Origin: a virus
Taxonomy: Duplodnaviria; Heunggongvirae; Uroviricota; Caudoviricetes
IMG/VR virus record: IMGVR_UViG_2671180740_000004
Span: 1 to 26,600 of that record
Direction: 5' to 3' (one strand)
DNA: 26,600 nucleotides
Shown here: piece after piece, positions 4,550 to 24,354 of the stretch
Layout of the letters: every line of letters starts with the position of its first letter
How positions within the stretch are numbered: position 1 is the first letter of the stretch
Notes under the pieces: generated by a model
What the model was told of the DNA's origin: nothing
Database searches by the model: none
Seen by the model: only the letters and a program-made list of their open reading frames with translations
Translations under genes and position numbers: made by a program

Positions 4550-5284
4550 ATGAAAAATATTTATAAGATTATTGCGTGTGCAGTTATTGGGACGAGCATG
4601 GTAGCCATGCCAGCACATGCAGCAGAAGGAGACCATACAATTTCTCTGGGGTATGCGCACTTTCAGTTTCCGGGACTGAAGGATTTTGTAAAGGATGCGA
4701 CTGCTCATAACAGGGAGACTTTCAGTCATTTCGTCAACAGAAACTACTTTTCTTCATTGGGCGAATATACAGATGGTCGGGTCAGTGGATATGAAGGCAA
4801 GGATAAAAATCCACAGGGCATTAATATCAGGTATCGCTACGAGATAACGGATGATTTTGGCGTTATCACCTCTTTTACATGGACGCGTTCTCTCACTAAC
4901 TCACAGACATTTATTGATGTGCAGTCAGCCGATCATAGCAGGAAGATTAAGAATCCGGCAGCTTCTGCCAGAACGGATATCAGGGCGAATTACTGGAGTC
5001 TGTTAGCGGGGCCTTCATGGCGGGTTAATCAGTACATGAGTTTATATGCGATGGCAGGGATGGGCGTTGCTAAAGTTACCGCTGACCTGAAAATTAAGGA
5101 CAATATTAACAGTAGTGGTGGATTTTCTGAAAGCAACAGCACGAAAAAAACCTCCCTTGCGTGGGCTGCAGGTGCACAGTTTAACCTGAATGAGAGTGTT
5201 ACTCTGGATGTGGCTTACGAAGGTTCCGGCTCTGGCGACTGGCGCACGAGTGGCGTTACTGCTGGCATTGGCCTGAAATTCTGA
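4550..5284 (+). CDS. lom: Ail/Lom-family outer-membrane beta-barrel protein (244 aa)
   Basis: Signal peptide MKNIYKIIACAVIGTSMVAMPAHA|AEG. The C-terminus TSLAWAAGAQFNLNESVTLDVAYEGSGSGDWRTSGVTAGIGLKF closely matches the lambda Lom C-terminus (...DIAYEGSGSGDWRTDGFIVGVGYKF). The leader is AT-rich and the gene has its own terminator. Confidence 0.9.
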   Translation: MKNIYKIIACAVIGTSMVAMPAHAAEGDHTISLGYAHFQFPGLKDFVKDATAHNRETFSHFVNRNYFSSLGEYTDGRVSGYEGKDKNPQGINIRYRYEITDDFGVITSFTWTRSLTNSQTFIDVQSADHSRKIKNPAASARTDIRANYWSLLAGPSWRVNQYMSLYAMAGMGVAKVTADLKIKDNINSSGGFSESNSTKKTSLAWAAGAQFNLNESVTLDVAYEGSGSGDWRTSGVTAGIGLKF

Positions 5285-5308
5285 CCTGTATCCGGTAACC
5301 GTTTACTA

Positions 5309-5331
5309 CCCGCTGTGATGGCGGGTTTTTT
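5309..5331 (+). terminator. rho-independent terminator of lom
   Basis: CCCGC (5309-5313), loop TGTGATG, GCGGG (5321-5325), then T6 (5326-5331). Confidence 0.8.
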
Positions 5332-5332
5332 A

Positions 5333-5361
5333 TTGTCCGTACAGGGCAAAAATCGTAAATT
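5333..5361 (+). promoter_or_regulatory. candidate sigma70 promoter for the hok-like mRNA
   Basis: TTGTCC (5333-5338), 17-nt spacer, TAAATT (5356-5361). Confidence 0.35.
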
Positions 5362-5516
5362 ATGCGTGGGTGCCTTTCGGCTGATGGCTGGAGGGTGAAC
5401 CTGAAGGCCTGATGTGGAAAGGCCCCGAGTCAACCTAACGTTAACCCGAGGCCCTAACACTTCGTACCTTAAGCAAGTAGAAGGTTAGCGCCTCTCTGTA
5501 AAAGGAGTCAAGCGCT

Positions 5517-5657
5517 ATGTCGCAAAAATCGCTTATCACCGTCACAATTTGCATGACGGTTATCTTCACCATCTGGATGTTGCACGGTTCACTGTGTGAG
5601 TTCCGGCTGAATTTGTGGGGAGCGGAGTTTGCAGCGTTCTTACAGTGTAAGCAGTAG
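5517..5657 (+). CDS. hok: Hok/Gef-family type I toxin (46 aa); absent from the ORF track
   Basis: AAAGGAG (5501-5507) lies 9 nt before ATG 5517. The product is MSQKSLITVTICMTVIFTIWMLHGSLCEFRLNLWGAEFAAFLQCKQ: one TM helix followed by the SLCE-x-R...E-x-AAFL-x-CK signature of Hok proteins. Confidence 0.8.
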   Translation: MSQKSLITVTICMTVIFTIWMLHGSLCEFRLNLWGAEFAAFLQCKQ

Positions 5658-5666
5658 GAAAACCGC

Positions 5667-5688
5667 GACGGGGACGAAAGTCCCCGTC
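5667..5688 (+). promoter_or_regulatory. stable 3' stem-loop of the hok-like transcript
   Basis: GACGGGGAC / GTCCCCGTC form a 9-bp stem with a GAAA tetraloop, 10 nt after the hok stop. No U-run follows. Confidence 0.5.
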
Positions 5689-5713
5689 AACTGGTTGCTG
5701 AGGTTCAGCCGAT

Positions 5714-6115
5714 ATGGCACCCGTTTCAGGTGAGAGAATGAACGATAAAATTCTCCGGTATATGCAGCGTGTTGTGAGAAATTCCCGCAACCCTGAATTT
5801 ATGAATGAAGTTAAAGACGCCTGCCTTAAAAAGCAGGCGTTTTGTTTTGAGGCACCTGATGGCTTTCTGGTGCTGCGTTCTGTGCTCAGTGCTGATGGTA
5901 TCCCTTATGTTCTGGTGTTGCTGGGCGTGTGTACGGGGAGTAACAGCGTTGAGCGTTATCTGCCGGAGGTGAAGACATTAACCCGTCTGGCTGGCGGACG
6001 TTGGGCTGAATTTCATACGGCAAGGCGGGGATTTATCCGGCTGGGAAAACGTCTGGGCTTTGAGCGAATGCCGGATGATGAGGATGGCTTCATGGTGTTC
6101 AGGATAGCGGTCTGA
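5714..6115 (+). CDS. hypothetical protein (133 aa; 125 aa if ATG 5738 is used), possibly GNAT-like
   Basis: Clean ORF ending 50 nt before a strong terminator. The C-terminal pattern FHTARRGFIRLGKRLGFERMPDDEDGFMVF loosely resembles the tail of acetyltransferase folds. The functional assignment is weak. Confidence 0.55.
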   Translation: MAPVSGERMNDKILRYMQRVVRNSRNPEFMNEVKDACLKKQAFCFEAPDGFLVLRSVLSADGIPYVLVLLGVCTGSNSVERYLPEVKTLTRLAGGRWAEFHTARRGFIRLGKRLGFERMPDDEDGFMVFRIAV

Positions 6116-20622: not shown

Positions 20623-21246
20623 TCAGAATTCAAATTGTCTTGCTCTTAGTTGCGCTAGCATACTTCTGGCCCTATGCACCATATAGTTGGCGGGATCAAG
20701 TTTTGCTGCTTCGCGGAGCAATGTGTCGCGAGTCCGGTTGGTTATATGACGAGTCTCGTAGGCCAGATCAAACAGTTTCCCGTAGTAATCAGAATTCAGT
20801 TCTCTCATGACGGGGTATAGCTGCTTACTGAGTTGTTGTGCTTTTTCCATCCAGAGTTGAACGTAGCAGAGCAGGATGATGTCTTCTGCTGTGAATTGCT
20901 GCTCAGTTTGTACTGGCTGAATGTTGCGAAGTTTCTTTTCGCACTCGATGAAGTATCGGCGTATCTGGCGGCCTTTTTCGTTACGTTCAACCATCGCAAG
21001 CTCTTTGGCTGTGTCGAGGGTGAGGTGGTAATCCTTGCGGCGGCGGCCTGGAGTTTTCGCCAAATTTGGCGAAAATAGAATGTAGTCTAAATTTTCTACG
21101 AATCCATACTCGTTTAGCTTGGCCCGTATCCAGTTAGAAAAATCTTTACCTACCTCTAAAAATCCATGCAAATCACGCGCGTTCACCAGAAGCGTAGGTT
21201 CATTTGAGATTGTACCTTCAAACACAGGGATGAGTTGAGTGGTCAT
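20623..21246 (-). CDS. antA: AntA/AntB-domain phage antirepressor (207 aa)
   Basis: AAGGAGG (21258-21252) precedes ATG 21246. The sequence MTTQLIPVFEGTI...ARDLHGFLEVGKDFSNWI...YGFVENLDY fits the AntA domain. The track's 54-codon extension from GTG 21408 covers a structured leader and is rejected. Confidence 0.8.
   Translation of the reverse strand: MTTQLIPVFEGTISNEPTLLVNARDLHGFLEVGKDFSNWIRAKLNEYGFVENLDYILFSPNLAKTPGRRRKDYHLTLDTAKELAMVERNEKGRQIRRYFIECEKKLRNIQPVQTEQQFTAEDIILLCYVQLWMEKAQQLSKQLYPVMRELNSDYYGKLFDLAYETRHITNRTRDTLLREAAKLDPANYMVHRARSMLAQLRARQFEF
21002..21040. repeat. 39-bp perfect direct repeat, copy 1 (inside antA)
   Basis: TCTTTGGCTGTGTCGAGGGTGAGGTGGTAATCCTTGCGG is identical to 21530-21568. 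Confidence 0.95.
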
Positions 21247-21421
21247 GATGACCTCCTTTGGCTTTTTTCGAGAAATGCCACCACAAAATGTGGTGCCGGG
21301 AGGCTCGAAACGGCCCAAAAGATACCGCGGACTTATTCCCCTTGCGGGTGTTGTATTCGTCGCCCTCCCGACATTGATCGGGGATGTGACCGCACACTGT
21401 GCTATCACTGAATAACAGGCA
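21247..21421 (-). promoter_or_regulatory. structured 5' leader of antA (module 1), candidate riboregulator
   Basis: RNA helices are CCCGA/UCGGG around AUCAAUG; CGGGAGG (from plus 21363-21370) / CCUCCCG (from plus 21296-21303); CCC-GCAA-GGG (21338-21348); and CACCACA/UGUGGUG (21279-21295). CCUCC is complementary to the SD GGAGG (21252-21256). Confidence 0.5.
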
Positions 21422-21488: not shown

Positions 21489-21518
21489 AGTATAGTCAGT
21501 ATTGGACGCAGTCGTCAA
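21489..21518 (-). promoter_or_regulatory. sigma70-like promoter, module 1
   Basis: TTGACG (21518-21513), 18-nt spacer, TATACT (21494-21489). The -35 box is formed at the truncation point of antA'. Confidence 0.45.
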
Positions 21519-21783
21519 CCATCGCCGTTTCTTTGGCTGTGTCGAGGGTGAGGTGGTAATCCTTGCGGTTGTGACCGCCTCTACCAGATGTTTGCTTTCC
21601 CAAATTGGAAAGCAAAATATAGTCTTGATTTTCAATGAATTCGTATTCTGAAATGCGATTTGTAATCCATGCCGCAAACACCTTTTTCACGCCTAAAAAA
21701 GCATGCAGATCGCGGGCATTGCAGAGTAGGGCTGTTTCGTTGTCGATAGTGCCGTTGAATACGGGGATGAGTTGATTAGCCAT
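21496..21783 (-). pseudogene. truncated AntA-domain gene (95 aa; loses homology after ...TAKETAMV)
   Basis: AGGAG (21796-21792) precedes ATG 21783. MANQLIPVFNGTIDNE...ARDLHAFL... parallels antA, then ends DDCVQY* where antA continues ERNEKGRQIRRYF. Confidence 0.7.
21530..21568. repeat. 39-bp perfect direct repeat, copy 2 (inside antA')
   Basis: Identical to 21002-21040, with a 528-bp offset. Confidence 0.95.
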
Positions 21784-21937
21784 AATTATGACTCCTGACG
21801 TTTTAGTATTGACTGCCACCTTAGTGGGGTGGCGGGCTTCAACTACCGCGTCAGACGGCGGAGCGTATTTCCCGAAAGGGTATTGTATTAGGCTCTCTCG
21901 ACCCGCCATTGATATGGCGATACCTGTAAACAGGCAT
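21784..21937 (-). promoter_or_regulatory. structured 5' leader of antA' (module 2), same architecture as module 1
   Basis: RNA helices are CGCCAU/AUGGCG (21919-21904); GGCGGG (21907-21902) / CCCGCC (21836-21831); CCC-UUUC-GGG (21880-21871); and GCCACC/GGUGGC (21833-21815). CUCC..CUGACG (21863-21849) is complementary to the RBS CGUCAGGAG (21800-21792). Confidence 0.5.
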
Positions 21938-22312: not shown

Positions 22313-24354
22313 TTAAACCTTTTCGATCTGGACAAGATTGCTGTGCGACGGGTTTCCCTTTGCCAGCGGTGAAGGGCGGTGAGAGGTCAGAATATTGATA
22401 CTGCCGCCGTGATCGACCCGGTCACCAAACATATCCGCTTTAAGCCACGCACCTTGCCCGATGGCGGTAACGCCAGGCAGAATACGCGGAGTCACTTTTG
22501 CGGCAATCAGCATTTCTCCATTATTGTTAAATACCCGCACGGTATCGCCATGACGGATACCGCGTGCCTGAGCATCAATGGGGTTGATCCACACCTCTTG
22601 TGGGCAGGCCTGCTGTAACACATCAATATTGCCGTAGCTGGAGTGGGTACGCGCTTTGGTTTGGCGACTTCACTCAGCATCCAGTAGATGGGTTTGCGTT
22701 CAAATTTTGCTGAGGTTGCGGGTTGGGCGAGGATCACATAGCCCATATTCCCTGCAGATTCATGAGAGATAAGGTCTTCTTGCTCTGTTGGCATCAGGTC
22801 AGGCAACAGGATATCGCAATACTTAGCCGAGGCCGTCATGAAGTGGTCAATGCCAACAATCATCTCGCACTTGCTGTCATCCTGAAGCACCTCATGGGTG
22901 TGATTGATGTCGCCATGTTGATTGATCAATGTGTTACTGGCGTAGCACCATAAAAACTTGATGGGGACATCCAGTTTTTCTTTTCCACGAACACCATCAC
23001 GGGTCGCGGTCATTTTCGTACCATGGTCGATGGCATCTGTCCATGTAAAAACGGAAATCTGCGTTTTAACAGGATTCTCGAGCATCGGGAACCATTCTAC
23101 CCCCAGATCCCAGCTACCTTCGCGTACACCTGAGTTGCCGCCGTTTATGCCGACGTTACCGGTAAGAACGGAAAGCATGGCAATAGCGCGGGACGTTTGT
23201 TCGCCGTTGGAGTGTCGTTGTGGCCCCCAACCCTGACAAATATAAGCAGGTTTTGCTGAACCGATCTCTCGTGCCAACTGGATAATTTTTTCTGCCGGGA
23301 TGCTGGTGATTTTTGCTGCCCATTCCGGCGTTTTAGCTATGCCGTCAGGCCCTTCGCCCAGAATATAGGCTTTATAATGCGCGTTACGTGGTGCGTTGGC
23401 GGGCAGCGTTTTTTCATCGTAACCAACACAATATTTGTCGAGAAATGGCTGATCGACCATGTTTTCAGTAATCAGTACCCAGGCAATCGCACAGGCCAGT
23501 GCGCCATCGGTGCCAGGGCGAATGGGCAGCCATTCATCTTCACGCCCGGCAGCTGTGTCGTTATAGCGTGGATCGATGACGATCATGCGTGCGTTTGAAC
23601 GTTCGCGGGCTTGCTCGACGTAGTAAGTGACACCACCGCCGCTCATCCGCGTTTCTGCCGGGTTATTTCCGAACATAACGACCAGTTTCGTATTGGCGAT
23701 ATCATCCGGGCTGTTGCCATCATTGGCACCGAACATATAACTCATTGCGGCACTGATCTGTGCGGTACTGTAGCTGCCATAGCGACTGAGAAAACCCCCG
23801 CAAGAGTTCATCAGACGGTACGGGACGTTCGAGTTGGTGATATTTCCGCCATCTACGCCTGTTCCGTACAGGACATGTACAGCCTCATTGCCGTAATCTT
23901 TCAGGATCCGCCGAAGATTATCACTGATGGTATCCAGGGCTTCGTCCCAACTTATCCGTTCAAATTTACCTTCACCGCGCTCGCCGACGCGCTTCATGGG
24001 ATATTTCAACCTGTCAGGATGATTCATCCGTCGGCGGATAGAGCGCCCGCGTAAACATGCCCGAACCTGATGATTACCGTAAACGTCGTCACCTGTCGTA
24101 TCAGACTCCACCCAGTACACGGTGTCATCTTTCACATGCAAACGTAGCAGACAGCGGCTCCCGCAGTTAACGGTGCAGGAACTCCAGACCGTTTTCTCTT
24201 CTACCGGAGCCTCTGCCGCCCGGACCATTTGGGAAAATGGCAGAGTGAAAGCACTGCTTGCCAGCGCGAGACTGCCAAGTGCGGAGGTTTTCATCAGACT
24301 TCTATGGCTGATTTCAGCCTTCATGAGCGCCTCTGTGGTATGGATTTTCATCAT
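22313..24354 (-). pseudogene. ynfF: ynfF (Tat-dependent molybdoenzyme of the DmsA family) with an internal frameshifting deletion
   Basis: The N-terminal part (24354 to about 22660) and the C-terminal part (22621-22313) lie in different frames. The junction SEVAK|(P)KRV... is at about 22658-22660. The ynfE paralog in this same window has 130 codons (390 nt, 24754-25143) between the equivalent points. Confidence 0.8.

Follow-up and report, generated by a model that had tools for sequence, protein, structure and literature searches.

The window analyzed here is a 26,600-nt stretch of viral DNA (Caudoviricetes; positions 1 to 26,600 of the IMG/VR record IMGVR_UViG_2671180740_000004), and its region 5333–5722 is probably a self-contained hok/sok-type type I toxin–antitoxin (TA) cassette that has no mok frame. 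Jointly with this reading, and with the same degree of confidence, we regard the region as a "moron", that is, an autonomous gene inserted in a Shiga toxin (Stx) prophage of the 933W/POCJ13 type between lom and the next late gene. The gene itself and the toxicity of its peptide are already known; as far as we found, a full hok switch without mok is a regulatory variant apparently undescribed so far. A literature search for mok-less hok loci, and for a pairing of lom with hok, returned nothing relevant. The resources that cover the peptide (cluster 72, WP_000078907, and PHROG 251) describe only the peptide or the coding sequence, not the RNA architecture or the absence of mok, and the catalogue that defines cluster 72 states that its analysis left out mok, Sok, and mRNA structure (Escalera-Maurer et al., bioRxiv 10.1101/2025.08.07.668861). 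The original prediction had bounded the locus at 5333–5712; the region proved to be real, but the RNA unit ends at 5722, 10 nt beyond that limit.

The toxin gene is a 46-codon open reading frame (ORF) of the hok family on the plus strand (5517–5657), which encodes the peptide MSQKSLITVTICMTVIFTIWMLHGSLCEFRLNLWGAEFAAFLQCKQ and is preceded by an AAGGAG Shine–Dalgarno sequence (SD; 5502–5507) located 9 nt 5′ of the ATG. The ORF, its SD, and its Hok signature, with a transmembrane helix toward the N-terminus, were all present as originally described. The suggestion that a well-spaced SD of its own is unusual for such a gene did not hold for hok: the hok gene of the paradigm system of R1 carries its own SD in the same arrangement, 9 nt upstream, so that the one unusual feature left is the missing mok. 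A search with the Hok/Gef profile, proposed as a check in the original prediction, was positive, with Pfam HOK_GEF (PF01848) matching residues 8–44 at E = 4e−8 and 33.2 bits (curated gathering cut-off, 22 bits), and PHROG 251 matched the same peptide at E = 2.8e−24. In the family logo given by the 2026 catalogue, conservation exceeds 80% at M1, C16, T18, L30, C31, E32, and E41 (bioRxiv 10.1101/2025.08.07.668861); all seven are present in the 46-aa peptide, as M1, C12, T14, L26, C27, E28, and E37. In a protein alignment of 32 family members, C27 and C44 were invariant. The ratio of nonsynonymous to synonymous substitution rates (dN/dS) had a median of 0.23, and of 0.15 in the C-terminal half, indicating purifying selection on the family peptide. 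By these comparisons, the 46-aa product is a Hok/Gef-family inner-membrane toxin. An identical peptide is entry 72_1589 of cluster 72, termed a "high-abundance cluster" (Escalera-Maurer et al. 2026, bioRxiv 10.1101/2025.08.07.668861). In the same work, 72_1589 was cloned behind an arabinose promoter as pAZ3-72_1589 (plasmid LRP157), and 42 of the 45 Hok constructs were toxic; the three non-toxic ones are named, and none of them is 72_1589. Toxicity on arabinose induction, which the original prediction had proposed as a check, is therefore already reported for the identical peptide.

To define the RNA unit, we compared 25 distinct family loci, drawn from Stx phages, P2-like prophages, a relaxase plasmid, Salmonella tandem duplicates, E. 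albertii, and Citrobacter, and aligned from 160 nt upstream of the ATG to 75 nt downstream of the stop codon. In the loci that keep the 5′ end, the conserved block opens with GGGTGCC (5368 in the window) and closes with GGCACCC (5716–5722), regardless of the flanking sequences, and G5368 is the predicted start of a hok-like mRNA. The intrinsic terminator of lom forms the left boundary of the cassette, and the homology common to unrelated contexts starts just downstream of it. The sense promoter proposed originally, TTGTCC-17-TAAATT, is present: its −10 element takes the form TAnAnT (mostly TAGAAT or TAGATT) and lies 5–7 nt before GGGTGCC in most loci keeping the 5′ end, and the TTG of the −35 element is retained in most unrelated flanks. 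When the RNA spanning 5368–5712 was folded, as had also been suggested, it was more stable than its shuffled counterparts (z = −4.56). Furthermore, the Rfam sok model (RF01794) matched positions 5368–5530 with E = 6.7e−6 and 33.6 bits, below its gathering score of 59, and an in-register match was obtained in every family locus tested (33.6–55 bits, E = 1e−5 to 1e−10); although all of these matches are sub-threshold, their E-values and register indicate distant homology.

The structure of the full-length RNA was tested with RNAalifold and by explicit pair counting over the 25-locus alignment. In the consensus, 98.1% of the cells were paired, compared with 93.5% for column shuffles (none of 500 reached the observed value) and 36–44% when the partners were slid, and 16 pairs changed on both sides. 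The RNA is closed by a long-range helix between a tac-like 5′ element and an fbi-like 3′ element, in which GGGUGCC (5368–5374) pairs with GGCACCC (5716–5722) and (U)CGG(CUGA) (5377–5384) pairs with (UCAG)CCG(A) (5705–5712). The seven GGGUGCC/GGCACCC pairs are retained, with G-U tolerated; in the second part of the helix, the four core pairs (alignment columns 44–47 with columns 401–404) all covary, with both sides changed in 10–12 of the 25 loci; and among the loci whose 5′ end is intact, the energy of the cofolded ends was between −31 and −42 kcal/mol in nearly every case, with a single value of −26.7 kcal/mol. The fold-back of the fbi/tac kind postulated in the original prediction is thus borne out as a closure of the two ends, but not with the partners that it named. 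The pairing of TGAACCT (5396–5402) with AGGTTCA (5701–5707) was rejected as the main fbi/tac contact, as the cofolds preferred 5368–5384 with 5705–5722 in nearly all loci that have an intact 5′ end. In relatives it retains only 3–7 bp, weakly and inconsistently, with a few compensations as well as breaks, and 3 nt of it are shared with the better helix. It is possible that it forms an alternative contact, at best a secondary one.

The consensus of the closed form contains three further helices and a 3′ stem-loop. A ucb-like anti-SD element forms a hairpin in which GGCCCCG (5421–5427) pairs with CGAGGCC (5447–5453), and the hok SD is itself enclosed in a hairpin, in which all changes are one-sided and give G-U, fitting a helix of the plus-strand RNA. 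Partition function calculations gave the SD an unpaired probability of approximately 0.01–0.02 in the full-length RNA. The start codon region (5517–5532) pairs with a segment of the coding sequence in a 14-bp helix, and the U-to-C and C-to-U changes in the MLQKP lineages preserve its pairs. At window position 5631 (alignment A2, column 310), the window, which is of the POCJ13 type, alone has the Ala codon GCA rather than GCG, which places a single C·A mismatch in this start-codon-masking helix, a pair kept in the 24 other loci. The 9-bp GAAA-loop hairpin that the original prediction noticed just after the stop codon (GACGGGGAC/GTCCCCGTC, 5667–5688) is part of a larger stem-loop with an outer 5-bp stem (5661–5665 with 5692–5696), in which five pairs changed on both sides; by analogy with the terminal stem of R1, it is likely to be the 3′ end of, and an exonuclease block on, a processed mRNA.

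The absence of a mok frame, as originally proposed, was confirmed both in the window and across the subfamily. No plus-strand ORF that starts upstream overlaps or reaches hok in the window, and there was no conserved upstream ORF among the 25 loci. When 933W and the window are aligned to the covariance model, the AUG of mokW coincides with a "gug" in the model, and the window reads GUA at that place (5464–5466), and none of the 25 loci has ATG, GTG, or TTG at this position. An ATG or GTG does occur further upstream, at 5412/5414, and in the window GTG 5414 opens a 24-codon ORF that ends at TAG 5486–5488; we rejected it as a truncated mok, since its start, frame, and end are not conserved. The absence of mok therefore holds across the subfamily, as judged from the aligned loci. 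In R1, Hok synthesis requires both the start codon of mok and a ribosome that translates as far as the hok SD. Since there is no mok frame here, the coupling of Hok translation to mok that operates in R1 is not available.

A second, alternative set of pairings is conserved in the same sequences. When the alignment was cut after the 3′ stem-loop and the consensus was refolded, tac (GGGUGCCUUUC) paired with ucb (GAAAGGCCCC, 5417–5426), and GAGGC (5448–5452) paired with the dcb-like GCCUC (5490–5494), which overlaps the 5′ arm of the SD hairpin. In these alternative helices, 96.1% of the cells were paired, compared with 33–58% for slid partners. Columns 44 and 45 covary both with their fbi partners (404 and 403) and with their ucb partners (87 and 86; 11 sequences each), and one locus (L022) carries a coupled triple change at the alternately paired columns 92, 123, and 163. 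The unpaired probability of the SD was 0.02 in the full-length form, 0.09 in the shortened form (0.31 in the window), and 0.02 in the shortened form with the Sok target blocked. At the level of predicted pairing, the conserved alternative RNA structures follow the tac/fbi/ucb/dcb logic described for R1, from which the names and roles of these elements are taken (PMC9841398).

The minus strand carries the other half of the cassette. The candidate Sok-like promoter TTGACT-18-TAACCT, already noticed in the original prediction, is supported by its −10 element, the complement of which is kept in 25 of the 25 loci (AGGTTAG, or AGGATAG in three); at the −35 element, TTG or TTT is retained. Downstream of it, the complement of 5421–5453, followed by UUU, would form the terminator hairpin of the predicted antisense RNA. 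The mean energy of this hairpin was −20.8 kcal/mol on the minus strand versus −12.8 kcal/mol on the plus strand, and the minus-strand form was the more stable in 25 of the 25 loci, because its G·U pairs read as C·A mismatches on the plus strand. In position and size, the predicted RNA corresponds to the annotated 71-nt sokW of 933W. These observations support the proposition that the minus strand bears a Sok-like antisense gene, the expression of which is a prediction only. Both promoters of the cassette are supported by conservation, as seen in the alignment, and not by consensus strength. The features of the cassette are collected in Table 1.

Table 1. Features of the hok/sok-type cassette and its left boundary in the window (elements predicted from the alignment, folding, and scans named in the last column)
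Feature	Position	Strand	Basis
Intrinsic terminator of lom, ACCCGCTGTGATGGCGGGT then T-run	5308–5334	+	Terminator scan
Predicted promoter of hok-like mRNA: TTGTCC 5333–5338, 17-nt spacer, TAAATT 5356–5361	5333–5361	+	Conservation
Predicted full-length hok-like mRNA, ~355 nt, conserved RNA unit	5368–5722	+	Alignment, consensus structure
tac-like 5′ element GGGUGCCUUUCGGCUGA	5368–5384	+	Covariation, cofolding
Predicted Sok-like antisense RNA, ~60 nt, 5′ tail and terminator hairpin	5415–5475	−	Strand asymmetry, sokW position
ucb-like anti-SD element GAAAGGCCCCG	5417–5427	+	Consensus structure, pair counts
Vestigial mok SD homologue GAGGC, no start codon after it	5448–5452	+	Rfam covariance-model alignment
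Predicted Sok-like RNA promoter: TTGACT 5511–5506, 18-nt spacer, TAACCT 5487–5482	5482–5511	−	Conservation
Hairpin enclosing the hok SD: AGCGC 5487–5491 / GCGCU 5512–5516	5487–5516	+	99.2% of cells paired
dcb-like element GCCUC	5490–5494	+	Consensus fold of shortened alignment, pair counts
hok-family toxin gene, 46 aa	5517–5657	+	PF01848, PHROG 251, family alignment, dN/dS
Coding segment GCGGAGUUUGCAGCGU pairing with the start codon region 5517–5532	5622–5637	+	14-bp helix, 98.3% of cells paired
3′ stem-loop AACCG.GACGGGGAC-GAAA-GUCCCCGUC...UGGUU	5661–5696	+	99.6% of cells paired
fbi-like 3′ element UCAGCCGAUAUGGCACCC	5705–5722	+	Consensus structure, cofolding, covariation

By analogy with R1 hok/sok, the full-length mRNA would be inert, 3′ exonucleolytic trimming back to the stem-loop would remove fbi, and after trimming tac would pair with ucb, and GAGGC with GCCUC. 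Because there is no mok frame, the refolding would have to act on the ribosome-binding site of hok itself; and because GCCUC overlaps the 5′ arm of the SD hairpin, its capture would loosen that hairpin and allow direct initiation at hok, a step that we infer for the subfamily and regard as the weakest of the scheme. The Sok-like RNA would bind the GAGGC side, returning GCCUC to the SD hairpin, and its binding would probably trigger RNase III cleavage, as in R1 and hokW. The biological role may be addiction to, or maintenance of, the element, possibly with help in lysis after induction, as reported for hokW. A more specific version is put forward tentatively, as possible rather than probable: that a hok/sok lineage, cluster 72, lost mok and keeps the complete tac/fbi/ucb/dcb switch and Sok, that the "mok SD/dcb" helix was re-used to open the hok ribosome-binding site, and that Sok exerts direct control through this RNA switch. 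Cassettes of cluster 72 extend over E. coli, Shigella, Salmonella, E. albertii, and Citrobacter, and their carriers are Stx phages, P2-like prophages, plasmids, and chromosomes.

Several points weigh against this scheme. The gain in SD accessibility on shortening was small in most members (0.00–0.16), and the local CUCC/GGAG pairing persisted after shortening; therefore, equilibrium folding alone does not explain mok-independent translation, and equilibrium SD accessibility, for which the effect had the right direction and a small size, was set aside as a decisive test of the switch. Neither the sense nor the minus-strand promoter rose above the threshold of a generic sigma-70 consensus scan, the terminator tail of the Sok-like RNA has only three U residues in E. 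coli-type members, and the 5′ and 3′ ends of both the hok mRNA and the Sok RNA are predictions only. The toxicity reported for 72_1589 in the preprint is that of the peptide expressed from a foreign SD and promoter. Finally, in the prophage the cassette reads in the same direction as the late operon around it, and the relevant source of Hok might be late transcripts reading through, rather than the promoter of the cassette.

This last point leads to a different reading, in which the gene functions in the phage mainly as a late accessory lysis protein, expressed by Q-antiterminated read-through from lom, and its TA-like RNA features are inherited baggage. The sense orientation of the cassette in the late region, directly after lom, fits such a role, as does the fact that the other Hok locus of Sp5 speeds lysis and doubles phage release after mitomycin C. 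However, the lom terminator stands immediately upstream of the cassette, and the own promoter, the 5′–3′ closure, and the antisense promoter are under selection in non-phage and P2-like contexts as well; we consider it rather improbable that lysis is the main function. The two roles are in any case not exclusive, hokW being both a TA system and a lysis helper. It is less probable again, to the point of being very unlikely, that the locus is a decaying, non-functional hok relic, silenced by the loss of mok and comparable to the hok loci that have been inactivated on the E. coli K-12 chromosome. The requirement for mok in R1, the absence of one in the cassette, and a frameshift in one related record (L014) would be expected of such a relic, but the frameshift is confined to that record. 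Moreover, purifying selection acts on the peptide (dN/dS of 0.23, and 0.15 in the C-terminal half), at least five helices are maintained by compensatory changes, the promoter elements are conserved, the peptide is reported to be toxic, and the unit is dispersed among the phages, plasmids, and chromosomes of more than one genus, several in all.

Translational coupling could also have been retained in another form, with a short mok remnant: a ribosome ending the ORF that starts at GTG 5414 would melt the SD stem and hand over to the hok SD, and Sok would act on this leader ORF much as in R1, where the important point is that mok is translated as far as the hok SD. The GTG 5414 ORF is preceded by GAAGG, and its stop codon abuts the AGCGC stem (5487–5491); E. 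coli-type members have ATG or GTG at the 5412/5414 site; and an overlapping mok-like frame from the same site is open in three loci only, those of E. albertii (L007, 79 codons), PhiR5_2 (L013, 61 codons), and Citrobacter (L008), where it has 34 codons and ends in UGAUG. Nevertheless, the start codon of the leader is absent throughout the Salmonella-type group (...CAGAAAAGCGAAAG...), and through small indels the length (8–79 codons), frame, and end point (−81 to +136) of the leader ORF vary between loci. Its start site is positioned 45 nt upstream of the mokW-start homologue, level with the 3′ end of the predicted Sok complementarity or past it, and the conservation of this site is explained equally well by the Sok terminator tail. 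We regard coupling through such a remnant as unlikely, and a hok/sok-type cassette without a mok frame remains our preferred reading.

The cassette shares with R1 hok/mok/sok (parB) the Hok/Gef toxin, the tac/fbi closure, the ucb anti-SD element, the dcb alternative pairings, and a 3′ stem-loop that would protect the processed mRNA. The layout of the antisense gene, here a predicted one, also agrees: its promoter directly precedes the hok start, and its terminator hairpin covers the GAGG element. In contrast to R1, it has no mok frame and no start codon after the GAGG homologue; the toxin has 46 aa, whereas that of R1 has 52 aa, with 34% identity; and the RF01794 structure, although matched in register, scores 33.6 bits against the gathering score of 59. 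The nearest named Hok by profile is HokA of E. coli K-12 (NCBIfam NF007290), but the score of 38.4 bits is far under the equivalog cut-off of 89, and the peptide is not HokA. A HokA-like peptide of the catalogue (sequence 1397) has approximately 41% identity and shares the motif ...FTxWM..SLCE....E.AAFL.C. A working resemblance only can be drawn to tisB/istR-1 and to zorO/orzO, type I systems with no leader ORF, in which the antitoxin target lies approximately 30–90 nt upstream of a masked SD; there is no sequence or structural homology to the cassette, and processing in those systems is at the 5′ end, whereas the layout here is suited to 3′ processing. The primary transcript of tisB is inert, and its processed form is active. 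The same behavior is described for zorO (PMC5397157).

The cassette is also distinct from the hokW-mokW-sokW locus of the Stx phages 933W and Sp5, with which it shares the kind of phage and the Hok-family type I TA organization. The hokW-sokW locus of Sp5 is a characterized prophage Hok system that helps lysis, and HokW is a 51-aa protein, MKQQKAM...DYESEK (Takada et al. 2021, PMC8621323). We rejected an equation of the two, because the peptide, position, and strand differ and hokW is not in the window; the hokW primer sequence was not found there. In 933W, hokW lies at 58.4–58.7 kb on the other strand, approximately 13 kb from the lom-side cassette, and has an annotated mokW and a 71-nt sokW. 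HokW falls into cluster 35, which is HokD-like, and shares 36% identity with the 46-aa peptide; hokW of 933W scores 113.5 bits with the Rfam sok model, compared with 33.6 for the window and 38–55 for its relatives. Both cassettes coexist in 933W and Sp5, whereas the window has the lom-side one only.

In the window, the cassette lies between lom (4550–5284) and the next late gene, in sense orientation in the late region. The 429-bp interval from lom to the next gene (5285–5713) is 100% identical to that of Shigella phage POCJ13 and 98.8% identical to those of 933W, VT2-Sakai (Sp5), and many other Stx phages; the interval is contained in 198 phage records. The description of the gene as unannotated holds for the ORF list used in the original prediction but not for the Prokaryotic Genome Annotation Pipeline (PGAP), PHROG-based pipelines, several GenBank submitters, or the POCJ13 record. 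In the RefSeq record of POCJ13, the ORF is PI30_gp65, "MokW-like host killing"; other submitters label it "small toxic polypeptide" or "host toxic membrane protein", and it is without annotation in the old GenBank records of 933W and Sakai. Among 5,426 complete E. coli genomes in RefSeq, 714 carry the locus, and in the E. coli records sampled it is labeled "Hok/Gef family protein" (WP_000078907); in the single E. coli RefSeq region inspected in detail, the annotation contained no RNA feature. A protein search assigned 56 homologous protein clusters from E. coli, Shigella, and Salmonella to the 46-aa subfamily, and family DNA loci were also recovered from E. albertii and Citrobacter. Besides Stx phages, the cassette occurs after gpD/ogr in P88-like and other P2-like prophages, on a relaxase plasmid, as tandem duplicates, and beside ykgM, which supports its autonomy as a unit.

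Some of the related loci are of interest in their own right. In two Salmonella enterica loci, L016 (1501–1641 and 1991–2131) and L017 (1501–1641 and 1995–2135), complete cluster-72 cassettes are duplicated in tandem approximately 490 bp apart, with separate tac/fbi ends and a separate Sok promoter for each copy. On the chromosome of E. coli O157:H7 (L036, 1668–1808), a divergent second paralogue of the same subfamily, MPQKTIIVGMLCLTMLLTVWVLHASPCEFRVSFMWSEIAAFLQCKP, with approximately 78% DNA identity, adjoins the type B L31 gene ykgM, which is a non-prophage site; the best match falls within the 60–80% identity band of this paralogue in 261 records of complete E. coli genomes. In the Stx2a phage Stx2_481 (LC616045; L014, approximately 1709–1850), hok is frameshifted by one additional G in the GGGG run that follows ..NLWG. 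A frameshift shared across the 92%-identity Stx2a phage group was considered and rejected, since only LC616045 has it, and LC645410 and the RefSeq copies are intact; it is a mutation of a single record or a homopolymer sequencing error. In a Salmonella locus beside lambdoid tail-fiber genes (L019, approximately 1341–1400), unrelated sequence replaces the promoter and the tac region, and the Sok promoter, hok, and fbi are retained; in this 5′-truncated cassette, the closing helix could not form. In another Salmonella locus, at the end of a P2-like prophage (L026), the Rfam family STnc540 matches 1795–1992 on the minus strand with 171.6 bits, directly downstream of a cluster-72 hok cassette.

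At the right end of the cassette, the annotated start of the next ORF, ATG 5714, sits inside the fbi-like element (..GAUAUGGCACCC); the fbi counterpart in relatives outside Stx phages reads AAGGCACCC. The alignment of PHROG 610 to this ORF (window 5714–6115) begins only at residue 9, and the ORF is annotated as a shorter, 125-aa form in the phi315 and P27 records; on these grounds, its true start is probably ATG 5738.

Elsewhere in the window, near the prophage end, the Rfam family sRNA-Xcc1 (RF02221; gathering score 53) matched 21287–21372 and 21823–21907 on the minus strand with 74.5 and 53.0 bits, respectively. Both matches are in 5′ leaders, one in front of each of two AntA/AntB antirepressor ORFs (approximately 20623–21249 and 21496–21783, minus strand), and both ORFs match Pfam PF08346 (E = 3e−26 and 2e−24). 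A structured RNA that recurs ahead of two antirepressor paralogues has more the look of a cis-regulatory leader than of a small RNA. Beyond the prophage end, a molybdopterin oxidoreductase gene (DmsA/YnfE-like; PF00384 and PF04879; 22313–24354, minus strand) is split into two ORFs (22507–24354 and 22313–22621), which suggests a frameshift or a junction made by the prophage insertion.

In the paradigm system R1, translation of mok is treated as obligatory for Hok synthesis. A widespread, selectively maintained hok lineage without mok would be a natural test of what mok is for, and it could show how an antisense RNA directed approximately 30–90 nt upstream of the SD silences a toxin. For the phages themselves, those of the 933W/Sp5 type carry two Hok cassettes, and deletion of hokW-sokW alone, as published, leaves a prophage that is not Hok-free, whereas POCJ13-type phages carry the lom-side Hok cassette only.

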